A DNA stretch of 44,134 nt from Wanchaivirus PDP110P2: sequence record OZ035745.1; one strand, given 5' to 3'. A program made the translations under genes and the position numbers. The notes beneath the pieces were generated by a model. That model had not been told where the DNA came from. It was given only the letters and a program-made list of their open reading frames with translations, and made no database searches. Positions 2,395 to 27,579 of the stretch are shown one piece after another (the first letter of the stretch is position 1; each line of letters starts with the position of its first letter).

Positions 2395-3846
2395 ATGGCG
2401 AAGAAAACAGGACGAGTCGCCACGGCGGATTCGTACGATAACTTTGTTGCCCGTGTCGGAATGCAGCAGCCTAACCAGCATGCCGCATCGACCTACAGGG
2501 CGAACTATACCAGCCGCAACCGCCTGCTCATCGAGTGGGCTTATCGTTCCTCCTGGATTATTGGTGCCGCAGTCGATTCGAAAGCGGACGATATGACCAA
2601 AAAGGGCGTGCGGATCACCAGTGAGATTGACCCGAAACGTCGTGGCATTCTGGAATCACGGTTCGATGAGCTTCAGCTTTGGGATTGCATCAACGAGACG
2701 CTGAAATGGTCCCGGCTGTATGGCGGGGCGGTGGCGCTGATTCTGATTGAAGGTCAGGCACCGCTGACGCCGCTGGTGCTGGATAAGGTTGGCAAGGGCA
2801 GCTTTAAAGGTCTGGCTGTACTTGACCGCTGGATGATTAACCCACAGCTCACCAGGCGCATTAAGGCGCTTGGCCCCAATCTCGGCAAGCCAGAATTCTA
2901 TGACATCGTGACGACGGCGCAGGGGCTTCCTGCGTGGACCGTTCACCACAGCCGACTGATTCGCATGGATGGTGTGAAACTGCCCTACCAGCAGAAAATC
3001 ACCGAAAACGAGTGGGGCATGTCCATTGTCGAGCGCATCTTCGATCGCCTGACTTCCTACGATAGCACCAGCGTCGGCGCCGCCCAGCTTGCCTACAAGG
3101 CACATCTGCGAACGGCAAAGATTAAAAAGCTGCGTGAAATTATCGCCATGGGCGGTAAACCATTCGAAGCGCTGGTTAAACAAATGGAGTTAGTTCGCCA
3201 GTACCAGACGAACGAGGGTATGTCCCTGTTTGATTCGGAGGACGAATTTGAAACACATTCCTATTCTTTCGCGGGCCTGTCTGACCTGCTTAGCGAGTTT
3301 AAAGAGGATATCGCGGGTGCTGTTGGCATTCCTCTTGTCCGTCTGTTCCGCCAGTCACCGAAGGGTTTTTCAACCGGTGACGCTGACCTCGCGAACTACT
3401 ACGACGACGTTGGAACGCTTCAGGAGCGAGATTTACGGCCTCACATCCGCCTGTTATTCGATGTACTGCATCGCTCAGAGTTTGGCGAGCCGTTGCCGCA
3501 AGATTTCACCTTTGAGTTTAACCCCCTGTGGCAGATGAGCGACACCGATCGCTCCACGGTGGCAACCAACACAACTACCGCTCTTGCAACCGCGGTGCGT
3601 GATTTGGGCATGTCGCCGGCTGCTGCTCTGACTGATTTGCGCGAGCTGTCTGACGTTACCGGCATCGGTGCTTCAATTAGCGATGAGGATATCCAGAATG
3701 CGGCGAAACAGTGGCAGGAGACTGAATCTGAAACCAGCCCTCCGCCGCCGATCGGAGGTCCAGTATCAGAAAAGCCTACTGGCGATAGTCGACCAGATAA
3801 ATCAAATCGTCACGGGTTCCTACGATGGTTCACAGGCAAGCGCTGA
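2395..3846 (+). CDS. portal protein (putative)
   Basis: 483-aa ORF directly after terminase with GGAGA RBS; size and position typical of portal; acidic C-terminus. Confidence 0.65.
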   Translation: MAKKTGRVATADSYDNFVARVGMQQPNQHAASTYRANYTSRNRLLIEWAYRSSWIIGAAVDSKADDMTKKGVRITSEIDPKRRGILESRFDELQLWDCINETLKWSRLYGGAVALILIEGQAPLTPLVLDKVGKGSFKGLAVLDRWMINPQLTRRIKALGPNLGKPEFYDIVTTAQGLPAWTVHHSRLIRMDGVKLPYQQKITENEWGMSIVERIFDRLTSYDSTSVGAAQLAYKAHLRTAKIKKLREIIAMGGKPFEALVKQMELVRQYQTNEGMSLFDSEDEFETHSYSFAGLSDLLSEFKEDIAGAVGIPLVRLFRQSPKGFSTGDADLANYYDDVGTLQERDLRPHIRLLFDVLHRSEFGEPLPQDFTFEFNPLWQMSDTDRSTVATNTTTALATAVRDLGMSPAAALTDLRELSDVTGIGASISDEDIQNAAKQWQETESETSPPPPIGGPVSEKPTGDSRPDKSNRHGFLRWFTGKR

Positions 3847-20299: not shown

Positions 20300-22873
20300 A
20301 TGAGTGAATACGATACCGGCAATTCTGTGCCGTCTGCATCAATGCCTGATGCATGGGATAATATGCAGTCTATTGATAAGTTTGTTAATAGCAGCGATGA
20401 AACCATTACAACACGTACAGGCGAAAAGTTAGATACTTTGCATGGCGTTAATGTTAAGGCGGACAACCAGCTAACGCAGCAGCAAGCAGACTTTGAAGCC
20501 TCGCAAGAAGAAAGGGATGCTGTAGTTGAGGAAACCAGGCAGCACCTGATTCCACTCAGCCGCCAGTATATGACACTGGCCGCGGCACAGGCAGATATTG
20601 CTAATATCCCCGAGGGGAGCACTACGTATTACCGAAGCCCTGACGATAGCGCTCTTGCGATTGAGGTTATTAACACTTCAGGAACGCTGCAGCCTACTGG
20701 ACGAAAAATGCCATCCGCAATGCCAATGGGTTACCAGTCTGCTACAGCTGTGAGTAGCGGTGCGGCTAATACCATTGCTATCACTATCCCCGGATTATTA
20801 GTGGATGGCAGTTTGATTTATTTCCTGTCTCCTATTTTGAATACGGCGGCTGTTAGCGTTACCGTGACAGATGCCAGGGGGAACTCGGTTACTCGGGCAA
20901 TACAGAAACAAAATAATGCAGCTTTAGTTGGGAATGAGTTGCTTCTCAATCAGCCCGCACTGATGGAATTCCGCACTGGGACTGCTAACAATTTTGTCCT
21001 TGTGGCATCCGGCCCAGTAGCTGCTGAACTTGCGTCAAGAATTTCCACGCTTGAATTAAATAGCGTAGCGTTATTGTCTGGCGTTGCTAATACTGCGGAC
21101 GCCTACACCGCGTCAGCGTCAGCGATACCAGGCCTGGTTGCCTCTGACCGCGTTTTCCTTTTCACTCCGAGTGCGACGAACACGACACGGACGCCGACCT
21201 TATCCGTGAATGGCGGCACTGCGCGCCAGATCAAACAGGCGAATGGTACCAACGTCGCAGCGGGAGACCTGGTCTCTGGCTACCCTTATTTATTAAAATT
21301 CAATTTTGCATCGGCTGACTTTCGTATGCTCACATACCCAGCGGACCGGACGCGTCTGCTCAGCGGCCAGCAGAAGGCCACCGTAACCAGTGACGCAACA
21401 AGCCCGAACGCTATATCTTTAACAATCCCGGGCCTTATCGCGGACGGCACACAAATCACATTCGAGCCAGCTGTCACCAATACCGGGGCGGTGACGCTGC
21501 TAATCACCAACATGTATGGCGACACCGTGACTCGCACCCTGATGAAAGGGGCTAACACTCCTCTCGTCGGTGGTGAACTGAAGTACGCCATGCCGGTTTC
21601 TATCATGTTCAGGGGGGCTCCACAGAACAACTTTAAGCTCCTATATGCTGGCGACCCTACCACGGATATACAGACCCTATCGAACGACGTTACGACGCTC
21701 AAGGGGTCGCTGACAGACCCTTATGCTGCTCTGGCGGATAAACTCGTGGGCACCGGGGTATTATCAGACCAGTCACCATTCGGTACTATAACTTGGTCCG
21801 CGGGGGTTAAGAGCGTCACTAAGCGGCAGATCATTTGTACGTCTGTCGGGTCTTCTGTTGGCGTTGGGGCCGGCTCTACTGGCGGTGGTGCGGCAGGTGC
21901 CGCTTATGCACCGAACACACTGTTCGTCAACGCCTTGAAGGAAGAGCTTAAACAGTACGGCGAGTTTGACGTCATCGATGACAACCAGTGCATACCAACT
22001 CAGGCGATTCAGCAGTTCGCTGCCCAGCTAGCGAATTCGCCTTATTCAACCTCCGACTTTGTTTTGATTGTAGGGGGGATGAATGATGCGCCAGTTGGTA
22101 ACTTCAACATGGGGCGCACATTCCCCGGTCAACAAACGTCTCTCGAGTCGCTGGTAGACTTGTGTCTGGCACGAGGAGCGATTCCAATCATTTGCACTAC
22201 TCCACATCATAATGTGGAAATGTCTCAGACGTACCCCACAATCCCCGGTGGTAACCCGCTGTTCTGGCCGTTCAGGACATATAATGTCACAAGTACATAT
22301 GTCTTCGACGCCGTTGCAAATACCATCACGCAGAGTAACTTTGCTAACCCGAATTATGGCGGCAATATTCTGAAGCCGGGGCATACTCTGCGCGTAGAAA
22401 GTGGAGACAATATCGGCAACTATACTATCACGGCCATTTCCTCTGACCGGAATACCATAACCGTCCAAGAGACAATCCCGGTAAGTGGAAGCTACTCGAC
22501 AACGGTCAGACACTTTAACCTGCAGTCCATCGCTGAGGATATTCTTTACCCTGCACCGTCGGTTTCCTTTGTAACAAAAGACTGGTCCGGTAGCGGCGTT
22601 AAGGTACAGGGAGATGTGCGGTTCGAAATGGTGAATAATATGCAAAGGGTCGTCGCACGCAAAAAAGGCGCGTTCCTCGCAGACTGTGAAAAGTCGTTCT
22701 TTAAGTATGGTGTAGAGGTTGGTGGTTACTCGTCGGTATATAACGTCCCAGCTGGAAACTACAATCACATGAACGATAACGGGTACACAGTAACTTTCGA
22801 CTACACGCTGAAAGTCGCAGCAAGGAAGATTGCCAATCTCATATTCGGAGATAAATATTACTCTGCAGCATAA
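20300..22873 (+). CDS. large tail fibre/tailspike protein with triplicated domain and SGNH/GDSL-hydrolase-like domain
   Basis: 857-aa ORF; three internally similar segments of about 95 aa (aa ~145-445); downstream region has SGNH-like blocks (VGSSVG, GGMND, TPHH). Confidence 0.6.
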   Translation: MSEYDTGNSVPSASMPDAWDNMQSIDKFVNSSDETITTRTGEKLDTLHGVNVKADNQLTQQQADFEASQEERDAVVEETRQHLIPLSRQYMTLAAAQADIANIPEGSTTYYRSPDDSALAIEVINTSGTLQPTGRKMPSAMPMGYQSATAVSSGAANTIAITIPGLLVDGSLIYFLSPILNTAAVSVTVTDARGNSVTRAIQKQNNAALVGNELLLNQPALMEFRTGTANNFVLVASGPVAAELASRISTLELNSVALLSGVANTADAYTASASAIPGLVASDRVFLFTPSATNTTRTPTLSVNGGTARQIKQANGTNVAAGDLVSGYPYLLKFNFASADFRMLTYPADRTRLLSGQQKATVTSDATSPNAISLTIPGLIADGTQITFEPAVTNTGAVTLLITNMYGDTVTRTLMKGANTPLVGGELKYAMPVSIMFRGAPQNNFKLLYAGDPTTDIQTLSNDVTTLKGSLTDPYAALADKLVGTGVLSDQSPFGTITWSAGVKSVTKRQIICTSVGSSVGVGAGSTGGGAAGAAYAPNTLFVNALKEELKQYGEFDVIDDNQCIPTQAIQQFAAQLANSPYSTSDFVLIVGGMNDAPVGNFNMGRTFPGQQTSLESLVDLCLARGAIPIICTTPHHNVEMSQTYPTIPGGNPLFWPFRTYNVTSTYVFDAVANTITQSNFANPNYGGNILKPGHTLRVESGDNIGNYTITAISSDRNTITVQETIPVSGSYSTTVRHFNLQSIAEDILYPAPSVSFVTKDWSGSGVKVQGDVRFEMVNNMQRVVARKKGAFLADCEKSFFKYGVEVGGYSSVYNVPAGNYNHMNDNGYTVTFDYTLKVAARKIANLIFGDKYYSAA

Positions 22874-23169: not shown

Positions 23170-23206
23170 CCACAAAAAAAACCTACGCAGACTGAACTGG
23201 GTTGAC

Positions 23207-23256
23207 TGCCCTCCGATAAAACTACTGTATATAACAACAGTGTTTATCGGAGGGCA
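23207..23256 (+). promoter_or_regulatory. LexA (SOS) box CTGT-N8-ACAG flanked by 14-bp perfect inverted repeat; putative SOS-regulated promoter
   Basis: tactgtatataacaacagtg at 23223-23242; inverted repeat tgccctccgataaa / tttatcggagggca contains the RBS; TTGACT at 23202-23207. Confidence 0.65.
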
Positions 23257-23260
23257 GATC

Positions 23261-23500
23261 ATGCTTCGACAGTCAGACATCGCCGCGGCTTTCCGCGAGT
23301 CCATTTTGCGCAGTTCCAAGGGGTTCCAGTACCTCCACACCCGCGACTTCGTTACCGCGCTTCGCCGGCGTGGCATCCATTTTTCCGAGGTGGAGGCGAA
23401 CTCCTGGATCGCACGCGAGCAGACGTATTTCGTCGATAAGACGCCGGACCATAGCGAAAACAGGCTGTGGATGATGGCCAACATGGGGAGGGTGATCTAA
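23261..23500 (+). CDS. small protein, first gene of SOS-regulated cassette
   Basis: ATG 23261 with GGAGGG RBS, 4 nt after the LexA-box hairpin; TAATG coupling to the next gene; track ORF 23147..23500 begins upstream in frame. Confidence 0.5.
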   Translation: MLRQSDIAAAFRESILRSSKGFQYLHTRDFVTALRRRGIHFSEVEANSWIAREQTYFVDKTPDHSENRLWMMANMGRVI

Positions 23501-23817
23501 TGGGATTCCCTTCACCAGCGACGGACTACGTTGAGCAAAGGTTGTCTGTTAACTCGATCTGCAATGTCGGCCCAAACACGCTAGTTTTCGAGCGATCTGG
23601 CGGTTACGTTGTGCTGGATATCTCCCTGAAGCCAAAGCAGGGTAGTCAGGTTCTTATCCAGCACGGCGGCGGGACGGAGCTTGCCACGCTGAGAGGAAAG
23701 TCACTGATTACTGAAGATGGTGAAGCGATCGAGGGCGAAGCCCTGGACGATGTTACTGTCATCGGCGTCGTGACGTTTACTATCTGCGATGTTCGTTCCG
23801 ATAATTCTATTATTTAA
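23500..23817 (+). CDS. UmuD'-like protein (S24/LexA-fold, begins at the UmuD autocleavage point)
   Basis: N-terminus MGFPSPATDYVEQR matches E. coli UmuD residues 25+ (GFPSPAADYVEQR); C-terminal VIGVVTFTI resembles UmuD VFGVVIHVV; catalytic GDSM not evident (ERSGGY). No umuC downstream. Confidence 0.6.
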   Translation: MGFPSPATDYVEQRLSVNSICNVGPNTLVFERSGGYVVLDISLKPKQGSQVLIQHGGGTELATLRGKSLITEDGEAIEGEALDDVTVIGVVTFTICDVRSDNSII

Positions 23818-23828
23818 CTGGGGTATAT

Positions 23829-24860
23829 ATGGCGCTGAAGCTATTAGCCAATAATAACGCAAAGAGTGTTCTCGCTGCGGGTATTAGCGCGTCCGCTACC
23901 GTTATTACCGTGGGTACTGGAGCTGGGTCTTTATTCCCGTCCCCTGTATCTGGGCAGAGTTATTTCAAATTAACGATAACCGACGCGGCCACGAAAACAA
24001 TTTCTGAAATTATGCACGTCACGTCTGTATCCGGTGACGTGATGACAGTAATTCGTGGTCAGGAAGGAACTACGGCACGCGTATGGTCAACGAATGACAT
24101 TGTCGCGAATTTAATGACCGCCGGATCATTGTTGTCGTTCCTGCAGATCAGCAATAACCTGTCAGAAATTAAAGATGCCGGTGAGGATGCGATAAATGAA
24201 GCCCGTTATAACCTCGGAATATCTGATTCCTCTGGTTTTGTCGGGCGTTCACTTGGCGCTCCAAAAGCTTTCTATGCAAACGGAACCTATACGCGATCTC
24301 CTCTGGCCCGTTATGCAAAAGTAACGTTGACCGGTGCCGGTGGCGGCGGTGGCGGCTGCCAGGCCTCCAACAATACAGAAACCTTCTCCGGTGCTGGCGG
24401 CGGCGCGGGCGCGACCATTATCGTATGGGTTGACCTGTCTGCTGCCAGTTCTTATGCGATTACTGTCGGCAAGGGTGGTAAGGGCGGAGTTGGCGCAGTA
24501 AGTGGTGCGGATGGTGGGGCCACCTCGTTTGCCAGCCTGTTCTCAGCTCCTGGCGGGAAAGGAGGAGTGAAGTCAGGCGTGTCCAATACCGCCGGCGGCG
24601 CCGGAGGTACGGCGGCGACCGGAGATATCAGGATCAACGGTGGTACCGGCTCAGATGGACAGACAGGCTCAAGCCTTCTGACGGGCAACGGCGGGGCGTC
24701 GTATTTTGGCGGCGGTGGCCGGGCGGGTTCTCAGGCCGGTATTGCTGGCGCAGCTCCCGGATCCGGTGGTGGTGGCGCGTATGACCTTGGGTTTACCGGT
24801 ACGGCATTTACCGGTGGTGATGGTGCTACTGGCATGGCGATCGTGGAAGAATTCGCGTAA
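23829..24860 (+). CDS. tail fibre protein with glycine-rich C-terminal domain (paralog 2)
   Basis: 343-aa ORF; motif YTRSPLARYAKVTLTGAGGGGGGCQ and Gly-rich C-terminus parallel gene 19167..20048. Confidence 0.6.
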   Translation: MALKLLANNNAKSVLAAGISASATVITVGTGAGSLFPSPVSGQSYFKLTITDAATKTISEIMHVTSVSGDVMTVIRGQEGTTARVWSTNDIVANLMTAGSLLSFLQISNNLSEIKDAGEDAINEARYNLGISDSSGFVGRSLGAPKAFYANGTYTRSPLARYAKVTLTGAGGGGGGCQASNNTETFSGAGGGAGATIIVWVDLSAASSYAITVGKGGKGGVGAVSGADGGATSFASLFSAPGGKGGVKSGVSNTAGGAGGTAATGDIRINGGTGSDGQTGSSLLTGNGGASYFGGGGRAGSQAGIAGAAPGSGGGGAYDLGFTGTAFTGGDGATGMAIVEEFA

Positions 24861-25015: not shown

Positions 25016-25250
25016 GCTCTGTTACAGGTCACTAATACCATCTAAGTGGTTGATTCATAGTGACTGGATATGTTGTGTTTTGTAGTATTATGCAGTCTAT
25101 TATTTAGACTAAATCTTTCATAACATATTGATATTTACAGTGTTTTCTGTTTATTGTTCAGCTTTTTTATACTAAGTTGGCATTATAAAAAAGCATTGCT
25201 TATCAATTTGTTGCAACTAACAGGTCACTATCAGTCAAAATAAAACCATT
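25010..25250. other. attP: attP (lambda type), core GCTTTTTTATACTAA at 25161-25175
   Basis: Core plus flanking AT-rich arms closely match lambda attP as recalled; lies directly downstream of int. Confidence 0.8.
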
Positions 25251-26319
25251 ATTTGATTTCAATTTTGTCCCACTCCCTGCCTCTGTCATCACGATACTGT
25301 GATGCCATGGTGTCCGACTTATGCCCGAGAAGATGTTGAGCAAACTTATCGCTTATCTGCTTCTCATAGAGTCTTGCAGACAAACTGCGCAACTCGTGAA
25401 AGGTAGGCGGATCCCCTTCGAAGGAAAGACCTGATGCTTTTCGTGCGCGCATAAAATACCTTGATACTGTGCCGGATGAAAGCGGTTCACGACGAGTAGA
25501 TGCAATTATGGTTTCTCCGCCAAGAATCTTTTTGCATTTATCAAGTGTTTCCTTCATTGATATCCCGAGAGCATCAACATGCAATGCTGTTGGGATGGCA
25601 ATTTTTACGCCTGTTTTGCTTTGCTCGACATAAAGATATCCATCTACGATATCAGACCACTTCATTTCGCATAAATCACCAACTCGCTGCCCGGTAACAA
25701 CAGCCAGTTCCATTGCAAGTCTTAGCCAACATGGTGATGATTCTGCTGCTTGATAAATTTTTAGGTATTCGTCAGCTGTAAGTCTTGATCTCCTTACCTC
25801 TGATTTTGCAGCGCGAGTGGCTGCGACCGGGTTTGTTGTTATATGGCCTTCAGCTATAGCCTCTCGGAATGCATCGCTCAGTGTTGATCTGATTAACTTG
25901 GCTGATGCCGCCTTGCCCTCGTCTATGTATCCATTGAGCATTGCCGCAATTTCTTTTGTGGTGATGTCTTCAAGTGGAGCATCAGGCAGACCCCTCCTTA
26001 TTGCTTTAATTTTGCTCATGTAATTTATGAGTGTCTTCTGCTTGATTCCTCTGCTGGCCAGGATTTTTTCGTAGCGATCAAGCCATGAATGTAACGTAAC
26101 GGAATTATCACTGTTGATTCTCGCTGTCAGAGGCTTGTGTTTGTGTCCTGAAAATAACTCAATGTTGGCCTGTATAGCTTCAGTGATTGCGATTCGCCTG
26201 TCTCGGCCTAATCCAAACTCTTTACCCGTCCTTGGGTCCCTGTAGCAGTAATATCCATTGTTTCTTATATAAAGGTTAGGTGGTAAATCCCGGCGCTCAT
26301 GACTTCGCCTTCTTCCCAT
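25249..26319 (-). CDS. int: integrase (tyrosine recombinase, lambda Int)
   Basis: 356-aa translation matches lambda Int as recalled (MGRRRSHERRDLPPNLYIRNNGYYCYRDPRTGKEFGLG...). Confidence 0.95.
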   Translation of the reverse strand: MGRRRSHERRDLPPNLYIRNNGYYCYRDPRTGKEFGLGRDRRIAITEAIQANIELFSGHKHKPLTARINSDNSVTLHSWLDRYEKILASRGIKQKTLINYMSKIKAIRRGLPDAPLEDITTKEIAAMLNGYIDEGKAASAKLIRSTLSDAFREAIAEGHITTNPVAATRAAKSEVRRSRLTADEYLKIYQAAESSPCWLRLAMELAVVTGQRVGDLCEMKWSDIVDGYLYVEQSKTGVKIAIPTALHVDALGISMKETLDKCKKILGGETIIASTRREPLSSGTVSRYFMRARKASGLSFEGDPPTFHELRSLSARLYEKQISDKFAQHLLGHKSDTMASQYRDDRGREWDKIEIK

Positions 26320-26600: not shown

Positions 26601-27224
26601 TTAAAATTCGAATTGTCTCGCCCGAAGGCTTTTCAACATTGGTCTTGCCCGTTCGAAAACGGCGCTTGTCTGGTCAAGTCGTGTCGCCTCCCTGAGCAGT
26701 ACATCTCTGTTTTTCGTCACCGCATAGAAGGTTTCAAACGCAATGTCATACAGCTTACTCGCGTATGATGAGTTAAGTTCCTTCATTATCGGGTACAGGA
26801 GTTTGCAGATGTCCTGTGCATTCTCCATCTGTACCTGCATGTAGCAGAGGAGGATGATTTCCTCGTCTGTGAATTGCTGCGCTGGTTGCATGCTGCGAAG
26901 TTTCTTTTCGCACTCGATGAAGTATCGGCGTATCTGGCGGCCTTTTTCGTTGCGCTCCACCATAGCCAGTTCTTTGGCTGTATCGAGGGTGAGGTGGTAG
27001 TCCTTGCGGTTGTGACCGCCTCTACCAGATGTTTGCTTTCCCAAATTGGAAAGCAAAATATAGTCTTGATTTTCAATGAATTTGTATTCTGAAATGCGAT
27101 TTGTAATCCATGCCGCAAACACCTTTTTCACGCCTAAAAAAGCATGCAGATCGCGGGCATTGCAGAGTAGGGCTGTTTCGTTGGCGATAGTGCCGTTGAA
27201 TACGGGGATGAGTTGACTGGTCAT
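26601..27224 (-). CDS. antirepressor-like protein (AntA/Bro-N-like N-terminal domain)
   Basis: ATG 27224 with AGGAGG RBS (frame opens at TTG 27254); N-terminal motif LIPVFNGTIANETALLCNARDLHAFLGV. Confidence 0.5.
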   Translation of the reverse strand: MTSQLIPVFNGTIANETALLCNARDLHAFLGVKKVFAAWITNRISEYKFIENQDYILLSNLGKQTSGRGGHNRKDYHLTLDTAKELAMVERNEKGRQIRRYFIECEKKLRSMQPAQQFTDEEIILLCYMQVQMENAQDICKLLYPIMKELNSSYASKLYDIAFETFYAVTKNRDVLLREATRLDQTSAVFERARPMLKSLRARQFEF

Positions 27225-27579
27225 GATGACCTCCTTTGAAGTTTTAGTTAGCAATCACCAGTTAGTGGCTGGTGATCGGGTGTCAACTAGAGCCTTCAAA
27301 GATGCTCCGGGCATATTCCCCTTGCGGGTATTGTATTACGCCTCTCCACCCGACCTTTGTACGGATGTGACTATGCCAAATTGCAGGCATAAAAAAGCCG
27401 CAAAGCTATCGGGTGCGGATGACCGCTTTGAAGTTCTAGTGCGGTCAGTATGCGATAGCTCTGGCGGATTTGTCAAATCATGTGGTCTTTATCTTGCTGT
27501 AAGCCGCGCCATTCGGGATTTTCCCCAAATTTGGGGGAAACTATCTGCGAAGTATTCACCTTTGACGGCAAGTTGCAGG

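Follow-up and report, generated by a model that had tools for sequence, protein, structure and literature searches.

The stretch examined here, Wanchaivirus PDP110P2 (OZ035745.1; 44,134 nucleotides, hereafter the window), carries a two-gene cassette headed by a LexA (SOS) box. The cassette closes the late region, following the last of the large tail genes, and has attP and int nearby (Table 1). Gene A encodes a basic protein of 79 aa and gene B an acidic protein of 105 aa, a "mini-HumD" which, judging from alignments, is a shortened relative of HumD of phage P1 and corresponds to a pre-cleaved UmuD'. The LexA box, TACTGTATATAACAACAGTG, sits in the loop of an inverted repeat, the right arm of which ends 3 nt before the ATG of gene A (23261), and the two genes overlap at TAATG (23498-23502; stop codon at 23498-23500, ATG at 23500-23502). 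An earlier sequence-only reading of this DNA had proposed much of this layout. The SOS box and the TAATG-coupled second open reading frame of 105 aa were confirmed. The inverted repeat around the box, with the ribosome-binding site of gene A inside it, is indeed perfect, although it measures 15 bp rather than 14; the small open reading frame closely downstream also exists, with 79 aa instead of 80 and at a distance of 3 nt instead of 4.

Table 1. Positions of the cassette, its predicted control elements and the genes around it in the window.
Feature	Position	Strand	Remarks
-35-like hexamer TTGACT	23202-23207	+	From the sequence; spacing to TACTGT 15 nt, 2 nt shorter than in relatives
Left arm of perfect 15-bp inverted repeat, CTGCCCTCCGATAAA	23206-23220	+	100% complementary; overlaps the -35 hexamer
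Putative -10 hexamer TACTGT	23223-23228	+	First half of the LexA box; assigned by homology
LexA (SOS) box, TACTGTATATAACAACAGTG	23223-23242	+	CTGT-N8-ACAG at 23225-23240; weight matrix 21.5 bits
Right arm of the inverted repeat, TTTATCGGAGGGCAG	23243-23257	+	Includes the gene A Shine-Dalgarno sequence GGAGGG (23249-23254)
Gene A, 79-aa basic winged-helix protein (predicted)	23261-23500	+	79 codons (23261-23497), stop 23498-23500; phrog_3893
Gene B Shine-Dalgarno sequence, GGGGAGGG	23485-23492	+	Inside the last gene A codons (NMGRV)
Gene B, 105-aa acidic mini-HumD	23500-23817	+	Codons 23500-23814; phrog_3469; predicted UmuD' fold
857-aa tail fibre/spike protein, SGNH/GDSL hydrolase domain	20300-22873	+	Last late gene before the cassette (context)
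343-aa glycine-rich tail-fibre-like protein	23829-24860	+	Pfam Gly_rich_2 and PHROG tail-fibre families; followed by attP and int (context)
int	25249-26319	-	Beyond attP, 3' of the glycine-rich gene

The N-terminus of gene B is MGFPSPATDYVEQR, and its residue 2 aligns to Gly25 of UmuD, the first residue of UmuD'. The protein starts M-GFPSPA and lacks both the N-terminal pro-peptide and the Cys24-Gly25 cleavage site, in agreement with the earlier proposal that it begins at the residue where UmuD is cleaved. In profile searches, gene B matched phrog_3469 ("UmuD-like protein"; profile of 106 aa) end to end with E = 1.5e-46 and phrog_811 (140 aa) more weakly with E = 2e-11. The tblastn matches formed a series, from > 90% identity in Klebsiella phages through mEp390 (51%) and phiES15 (49%) to ca. 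33% over 95% of the length in N15 gp26, HK140 gp28, phiKO2 and P1 HumD (32.5% for HumD). Alignment with HumD, N15 gp26, HK140 gp28 and UmuD revealed a 12-residue gap in the short proteins at SGDSMIDGGISD, the loop containing GDS60M, and a Leu in gene B at the position equivalent to Lys97. Thus, the Ser60-Lys97 catalytic dyad is not present, and the GDSM serine that had been described as not evident is deleted together with its loop. At the Ser60 and Lys97 positions, this alignment has Ser and Lys in P1 HumD, and Thr and Lys in the proteins of N15 and HK140. The acidic C-terminal tail of the HumD type is shared by gene B.

Sequence matches of gene B to solved structures of UmuD or UmuD' were confined to the first 42 residues. 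An AlphaFold2 model built on 30 diverse homologs reached a predicted local distance difference test (pLDDT) value of 79.7, with core blocks of 81-92, and its top matches in the PDB, found using Foldseek, were the UmuD' structures 1I4V, 1AY9 and 1UMU (template modelling score 0.59-0.66, probability 1.00), followed by the C-terminal domains of LexA and lambda CI. According to this model, gene B has the UmuD' fold that the sequence-only reading anticipated. The MGFPSP arm was invariant across 30 homologs that were otherwise 25%-55% identical, making it the most conserved part of the gene B family. The short family comprised 213 clusters at 50% identity, mostly of 104-109 aa and all starting with MGFPSP.

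The LexA box was scored with a 20-mer weight matrix derived from 20 LexA operators of E. coli. It obtained 21.5 bits, mid-range of genuine operators, and the runner-up in the window 13.2 bits; among 100 shuffles the mean maximum was 12.2 bits and one shuffle reached 21.6 bits. The bare CTGT-N8-ACAG pattern is non-significant by itself, with one match in the window against 0.6 expected. A broader comparison drew on 79 close loci, which gave 65 distinct upstream regions; a LexA box scoring 15 bits or more was retained in 55 of these regions. In 21 of these 55, the box was identical to the E. coli umuDC operator TACTGTATATAAAAACAGTA, to which the window box has two mismatches, and in 45 the hexamer TTGATC lay exactly 17 nt upstream of it. 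E. coli umuDC has TTGATC at the same 17-nt spacing, and the K-12 umuDC upstream region is collinear with the cassette in the order ATTGATAGCC...TATTGATCTGC-17 nt-TACTGTATATAAAAACAGTA...GGCAGAT..ATG. On the strength of this collinearity, the promoter and operator of the cassette are homologous to the umuDC promoter and clearly umuDC-derived. Since the -10 hexamer would, by homology, be the first half of the LexA box, LexA binding should occlude the promoter. The cassette is thus probably LexA-repressed and switched on by DNA damage. The predicted box precedes gene A and not the HumD-like gene directly.

Several other observations concern this upstream region. The ATTGATAGCC motif is common to E. 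coli umuDC (L009:258-370) and many cassette copies. Rearrangement junctions were found inside or at the LexA box and palindrome, independently, in three loci (L014 at 3690-3765, L018 and L088); the junction sequences were ...CGCGAC joined to ATTTATCGG, AGACCC joined to ATATAAAAACAGTA, and a joining of the box to gene A at around codon 53. In nine loci with an intact gene A, the upstream region has been replaced and the box is lost. A second LexA box linking the cassette to the immunity region was also considered, and only the weak 13-bit site at 36314-36333 was found. This second-best LexA-like site of the window, TACTGGATCAATCCACAGGA (13.2 bits), lies directly after cII.

The inverted repeat around the box differs in its expected effect between two kinds of transcript. 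RNA containing both arms folds at -38 kcal/mol (z = -7.1), as against the presumed transcript from the cassette's own promoter, which has no unusual structure (z = 0). Because the left arm overlaps the -35 hexamer, a transcript from the cassette promoter cannot include that arm, whereas a transcript reading through from the late genes upstream, which lie on the same strand, would have both arms, so that the Shine-Dalgarno sequence and AUG of gene A would be buried. No terminator was detected between 22873 and 23200. Complementarity between the -35-proximal TGATCTGCC and the Shine-Dalgarno-to-ATG segment GGCAGATCA was found in most loci: pairing in the consensus register occupied 84.9% of cells, compared with 30%-52% in slid registers, and the flank duplex energy averaged -16.8 kcal/mol, compared with -7.5 kcal/mol for shuffled left arms, the window being the most extreme at -30.4 kcal/mol. 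The inner arms vary by lineage and often still match, for example CCGATAAA/TTTATCGG versus CCTGAAT/ATTTCAGG. Native arms paired better than permuted pairs (0 of 2000 permutations), a modest signal in the duplex-energy test, and recombination inside the box has mixed the arms among loci. Arm complementarity is therefore conserved, and selection is likely acting on arm pairing. In the simplest reading, the hairpin probably provides translational insulation from late read-through. The E. coli umuDC operator itself does not lie in a long perfect palindrome; its -35 region and the segment before the ATG are complementary at only ca. 9 of 11 nt. We know of no described role for this complementarity or for the ATTGATAGCC motif upstream of umuDC.

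Gene A belongs to phrog_3893 (E = 2e-40), a family of unknown function in PHROG, and it gave no match in Pfam, NCBIfam or PADLOC, nor in the PDB by sequence. An AlphaFold2 model from 68 homologs, which form two subfamilies 45%-55% identical to each other, reached a pLDDT of 91.8 with the order helix-strand-helix-helix-strand-strand, and the fold can be predicted with confidence to be a winged helix. The fold matches were generic winged helices only. Putative recognition-helix and wing residues (A46, N47, W49, Q54, D59, K60, N67 and W70) were invariant across subfamilies with 45%-50% identity. The two proteins of the cassette are opposite in charge, with isoelectric points of 10 for gene A and 4.4 for gene B.

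More specific identities for gene A were examined and rejected. The sequence-only reading had likened the gene order to impC-impA, an analogy that did not survive, given the winged-helix fold, the lack of a DinI/ImpC match in Pfam and an hhalign probability of 0.1% against DinI. Against the LexA N-terminal domain the hhalign probability was likewise 0.1%, without signal; a Xis-like identity gave no hhalign signal, and a lambda-type Xis is encoded by another gene of the phage. The view of gene A as a serine-invertase relic was also dismissed (hhalign against Hin, 4.6% probability over 15 residues; the fold is not that of a resolvase). Some gene A homologs are fused in frame to invertase helix E or HTH_7 (P0200, P0125), and the junctions show a likeness (..WMMANMGR versus ..MAEMEREL); these chimeras are deletion or recombination products. 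In two loci (L003:4940-6900 and L006:4920-7370), the LexA-box promoter and the first ca. 72-78 codons of gene A are present twice. In the first copy, the reading frame of gene A continues into the 3' end of a serine invertase gene (helix E or HTH_7). Behind it come cargo (a 140-aa open reading frame or a SocA_Panacea pair) and up to three remnants of HTH_7 3' ends, and last a complete, divergent gene A2-gene B2 cassette. The 5' end of the cassette thus looks like a recombination hot spot that swaps cargo at the prophage end.

Since the Shine-Dalgarno sequence of gene B lies within the final codons of gene A, the conservation of the gene A C-terminus partly reflects a constraint at the nucleotide level: in a2-type gene A, the residues change to NPNGGL and GGAGGG is kept. 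The idea that the gene A tail ..GRVI mimics the UmuC tail ..LRVK was weakened by the same a2-type proteins, which end ..NGGL yet keep GGAGGG. In mEp390 (L091:2400-2500), what is left of an HK140-type gene A is its 3' third (..AWIKRYQPDFADKTTDGSDNRYWILRNMGRVF, followed by the stop codon), located directly upstream of a 106-aa HumD-like gene, and the record annotates a 42-aa open reading frame on the opposite strand at this remnant.

Both genes are under purifying selection, with ratios of nonsynonymous to synonymous substitution rates (dN/dS) of 0.12 for gene A (58 distinct alleles) and 0.10 for gene B (64 alleles) at dS of ca. 0.5-0.6. At 90% identity, 360 clusters were obtained for gene A and 847 for gene B, and the largest gene B clusters have thousands of members. 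The genera named were Klebsiella, Escherichia, Raoultella, Enterobacter, Citrobacter, Lelliottia and Shigella, and 171 of the 5426 complete genomes of E. coli carried the cassette. Across the 79 close loci, gene A was intact and preceded by the box in 57, intact with a replaced upstream region in nine and damaged in ca. 13, and gene B was an intact 105-aa open reading frame in 78. Gene A is thus the more dispensable partner. Beyond these loci, a gene A homolog directly precedes and overlaps the HumD-like gene in HK140 and in Enterobacter and Lelliottia prophages, and in the latter two genera the HumD-like gene can be long or short.

The unannotated record Lambdavirus PDP110P1 matches the cassette region at 100% identity, as does a prophage of E. 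coli 20KM2222 at the lambda attachment site, which adjoins ybhB/bioA. The window is a temperate phage of the lambda-attachment type, with a myovirus-like baseplate and tail set, lambda-type int/xis, CII and Cro, and a CI with a Peptidase_S24 domain. In the integrated form, the cassette forms the extreme right end of the prophage, and in the E. coli lysogen the end with the glycine-rich gene abuts ybhB/bioA. The extreme end of a prophage, or the end of the late region, is the usual site of accessory genes (morons). The earlier placement of the cassette between tail-fibre genes holds for this phage, where the SGNH protein and the glycine-rich protein flank it, but not for most relatives, where no further gene separates the cassette from the end of the prophage. 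No umuC was found, as had been stated earlier: tblastn of E. coli UmuC against the window gave nothing below E = 3 and no umuC relic. Of 82 related loci, one has umuC within the flank. This sole case, a 6.4-kb contig, carries a umuC 86% identical to E. coli UmuC ca. 2 kb downstream of the cassette (L065:3161-4423), probably the host umuDC adjoining the prophage end. dinI was not found in the window.

Other features of the surroundings may be noted. A gene with AntA/AntB and P22_AR_C antirepressor-like domains lies at 26604-27254 on the minus strand, just beyond xis, in this phage whose CI has an S24 domain. RefSeq annotates the 857-aa SGNH protein of the identical E. coli prophage (L001:16964-20160) only as a short pseudogene fragment and leaves ca. 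2.5 kb at this gene unannotated; the open reading frame is intact in the window. One protein (P0368) joins residues 1-58 of gene B to the C-terminus of the downstream glycine-rich protein and is a deletion derivative joining two neighbours. PADLOC gave zero matches at E <= 0.1 for gene A, gene B and the downstream glycine-rich protein, and Rfam gave sub-threshold chance matches only.

Taken together, these findings support the earlier description of an SOS-wired accessory cassette and depict an SOS-inducible moron of temperate Enterobacterales phages that descended from a umuD-type operon. Our favoured explanation, to which we assign a probability of about 0.5, is that the cassette supplies an SOS-induced, ready-made UmuD' surrogate for a UmuC-type polymerase of the host. 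In the lysogen, host LexA would repress the putative sigma-70 promoter (-35 TTGATC/TTGACT; -10 TACTGT). Following DNA damage, RecA would be activated and LexA would cleave itself, and the gene A and gene B proteins would then be produced together. Dimers of mini-HumD might bind the host UmuC-type polymerase via the N-terminal arm, and the UmuD' function could be supplied without the delay of the slow RecA-dependent cleavage of host UmuD, so that translesion synthesis would begin early and both the lysogen and the induced phage genome would tolerate damage. During late transcription of the tail operon, read-through RNA would have its Shine-Dalgarno sequence and AUG locked by the two arms in the -38 kcal/mol hairpin and would be translationally silent, and transcripts from the cassette promoter would begin within the loop (start near 23234) and be open to translation. 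Mini-HumD may have shed an S24 active-site loop and lysine that had become useless and retained the N-terminal arm. LexA binding, the transcription start, the UmuC partnership and the role of the hairpin are what we infer from these comparisons; as to the winged-helix protein, our guess is that it regulates by binding DNA or acts as an adaptor for gene B.

This explanation is favoured because of the HumD precedent, the role of the arm in a model of DNA polymerase V (Pol V) and the conservation of the arm in gene B. In an AlphaFold model of Pol V, one N-terminal arm of UmuD' lies against the palm, little finger and active site of UmuC (PMC11791011), and work cited in that article describes armless UmuD' as able to dimerise yet dead for mutagenesis. 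The sequence-only reading had envisaged a use other than canonical Pol V mutagenesis, for instance the hijacking of host UmuC. Such hijacking is the known function of the HumD family, as documented for P1 HumD alone, and thus represents no departure.

A number of results weigh against the surrogate explanation or parts of it. In the same Pol V model, the C-terminal carboxylate of UmuC is held by UmuD' residues S36/T71/K73 (PMC11791011), which, given the 24-residue offset, would correspond to S60/T95/K97 of UmuD; two of these three residues are lost in gene B, and productive UmuC binding is therefore not assured. The match of gene B to the NCBIfam HumD family NF051876 (48.2 bits, E = 1e-12) was under the 120-bit cut-off, and no match to Pfam Peptidase_S24 (PF00717) was obtained at E <= 1; the S24/UmuD membership expected earlier was thus recovered through phrog_3469 and, below the cut-off, NCBIfam, but not through Pfam. 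The window has a -35/-10 spacing of 15 nt instead of the 17 nt of its relatives, and a promoter scan of the window made no call at the cassette promoter. Gene A is missing from P1, N15 and some relatives, and ca. 13 of the 79 close loci have a disrupted gene A next to an intact gene B. For the hairpin, column-wise compensatory covariation was non-significant (198 of 500 shuffles performed as well), and the conservation of the pairing may have another cause.

Other functions can be imagined for the same proteins. The 12-aa deletion of the Ser60 loop and the change of Lys97 to Leu, where HumD keeps Ser/Lys and N15 and HK140 keep Thr/Lys, would suit a modulator or antagonist of Pol V, as would the existence of the short form as a distinct conserved subfamily (ca. 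105-109 aa; 213 clusters at 50% identity). Having retained the arm directed at UmuC and the dimer core but lost the docking pocket for the UmuC C-terminus, mini-HumD could enter mixed dimers with host UmuD or UmuD', or hold UmuC unproductively, and thereby damp or re-time SOS mutagenesis or the UmuD2C checkpoint during induction, with gene A assisting or targeting it. We regard this as rather unlikely, as HumD, the closest characterised relative, promotes mutagenesis and the strict conservation of the arm equally fits productive use. Gene A and gene B might instead form a split LexA-like regulator, in which the DNA-binding and dimerisation modules assemble into a non-cleavable complex after SOS induction and cause feedback re-repression or rewire SOS and phage promoters. 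The confident winged helix of gene A (pLDDT 91.8) and the contrast between its basic charge and the acidic gene B are in line with this view, as are the translational coupling of the two genes, which are always adjacent, the rank of the LexA and lambda CI C-terminal domains directly after UmuD' among the fold matches, and the invariant putative recognition-helix and wing residues. Nevertheless, gene A showed no hhalign relation to the LexA N-terminal domain (0.1%), its fold matches are generic winged helices, many of them protein-binding rather than DNA-binding, the UmuD-specific arm GFPSPAxDY would have no role in a repressor, and the HumD-like genes of P1 and N15 function without gene A, all of which makes a split regulator improbable. 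A wider proposition, that the two proteins jointly constitute an SOS-induced device, either such a non-cleavable LexA-like DNA-binding complex or a UmuC-directed decoy or adaptor, insulated by the palindrome from late transcription, appears to us doubtful, though somewhat less so than the modulator. If it were true, phages of Klebsiella, E. coli and Enterobacter would control host translesion synthesis or SOS shut-off.

In its location and LexA control, the cassette resembles the antirepressor operons that LexA governs in Gifsy-type prophages, as well as Tum of phage 186. By analogy, gene A could be an antirepressor or another lysis-lysogeny factor under LexA, with gene B as a passenger, and the pairing of the cassette with a divergent dinI in HK140-type loci would agree with such a helper of induction. 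The CI of this phage (34824-35552, minus strand), however, carries a Peptidase_S24 domain and is therefore probably self-cleaving, a separate AntA/AntB-like gene exists at 26604-27254, and gene A matches no antirepressor family and is dispensable in many loci; this role has even less to recommend it than the split regulator. The least credible of the readings considered is a dead relic of a phage-captured umuDC operon. It would account for the umuDC-like promoter and operator, the absence of umuC and the loss of the catalytic residues, but it conflicts with dN/dS of ca. 0.1 in both genes over dS of ca. 0.5-0.6, with the intact gene B in 78 of 79 loci, and with a family that exists in thousands of copies across genera and is diverse yet conserved in length. 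The decayed operon that the sequence-only reading had named as its own counter-explanation can thus be rejected for the present state of the cassette, although the promoter is still umuDC-derived.

SOS mutagenesis in enterobacteria stems mainly from Pol V, which normally becomes active only after a delay, since UmuD is cleaved slowly. With a ready-made UmuD' on very common prophages, lysogens of Klebsiella pneumoniae, E. coli and Enterobacter could mutate at a different speed and to a different extent when exposed to antibiotics that damage DNA, for example fluoroquinolones, which is relevant to how resistance evolves. The shortened protein could also serve as a natural deletion experiment for structural models of Pol V, in which the active-site loop would be dispensable and the N-terminal arm would not. 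The conserved winged-helix partner represents an uncharacterised player beside a well-studied pathway, and the cassette may be a simple case of a moron insulated from late transcription by a hairpin that sequesters the ribosome-binding site. The cassette is abundant in clinically important hosts; conceptually, it would be surprising only if the A-B pair does more than supply UmuD'.

LexA-controlled UmuD' proteins of the HumD type have been known in phages since 1999. HumD is referred to as an already-activated, shorter UmuD in PMC7092418 and as LexA-regulated in PMC9603915, and the GenBank record of P1 humD places a LexA site 20 nt upstream and states that the gene complements E. coli UmuD'. 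P1 HumD, N15 gp26 and the UmuD-like proteins of phiKO2 and HK639 resemble gene B in being phage-borne, in the lack of umuC and in the M-GFPSPA start at the cleavage point, and the P1 HumD group further shares the acidic C-terminal tail of the DDxP type and, as predicted for the cassette, a LexA box just upstream. In contrast, HumD has 129 aa with equivalents of Ser60 and Lys97, compared with 105 aa, a deleted Ser loop and Lys replaced by Leu in gene B. P1 and N15 are without gene A, and P1 has the divergent lxr in its place. The gp27-gp28 pair of HK140 ("hypothetical protein" and "UmuD-like protein") has the same two-gene layout, with a 79-aa gp27 that is 49% identical to gene A, overlapping genes, a LexA box, a TTGATC -35 hexamer at the family spacing and a position last before attP. 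It differs from the window in the long gp28 (129 aa), the divergent dinI upstream and the lack of a long inverted repeat around the box. In HK140-type loci (L092:1910-2262, L094:292-647 and L095:2646-3001), dinI lies divergently ca. 85 bp upstream and one LexA box occupies the shared intergenic region; these loci are small SOS-modulating islands of DinI, a winged helix and a HumD-like protein. The winged-helix partner is annotated only as "hypothetical" in HK140 and other records.

Outside phages, E. coli umuDC shares with the cassette a homologous promoter, with -35 hexamer and spacing identical to those of the relatives, a nearly identical LexA box and partial complementarity between the -35 region and the segment before the ATG, and residues 25-139 of UmuD are homologous to gene B. 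The cassette differs in that it lacks umuC, the 24-residue pro-peptide, self-cleavage and the catalytic dyad, and in that a winged-helix gene lies between the promoter and the UmuD' part. In impCAB of TP110, a small gene precedes the UmuD homolog under SOS control. Unlike that operon, which is mentioned in PMC7092418, and the DinI family, the cassette has a winged helix as gene A, with an hhalign probability of 0.1% for DinI, and contains no polymerase gene. LexA and lambda CI likewise combine a (winged) helix-turn-helix module with an S24-fold dimerisation core, but in the cassette the two modules lie on two polypeptides without a cleavage site or dyad, and gene A and the LexA N-terminal domain are dissimilar. 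Three features of the cassette are undescribed in the literature searched, namely the short subfamily without the active-site loop, the coupled winged-helix partner, and the palindrome around the operator that would lock the ribosome-binding site. In kind, the cassette is not a new system but a HumD-type phage UmuD' under probable LexA control.

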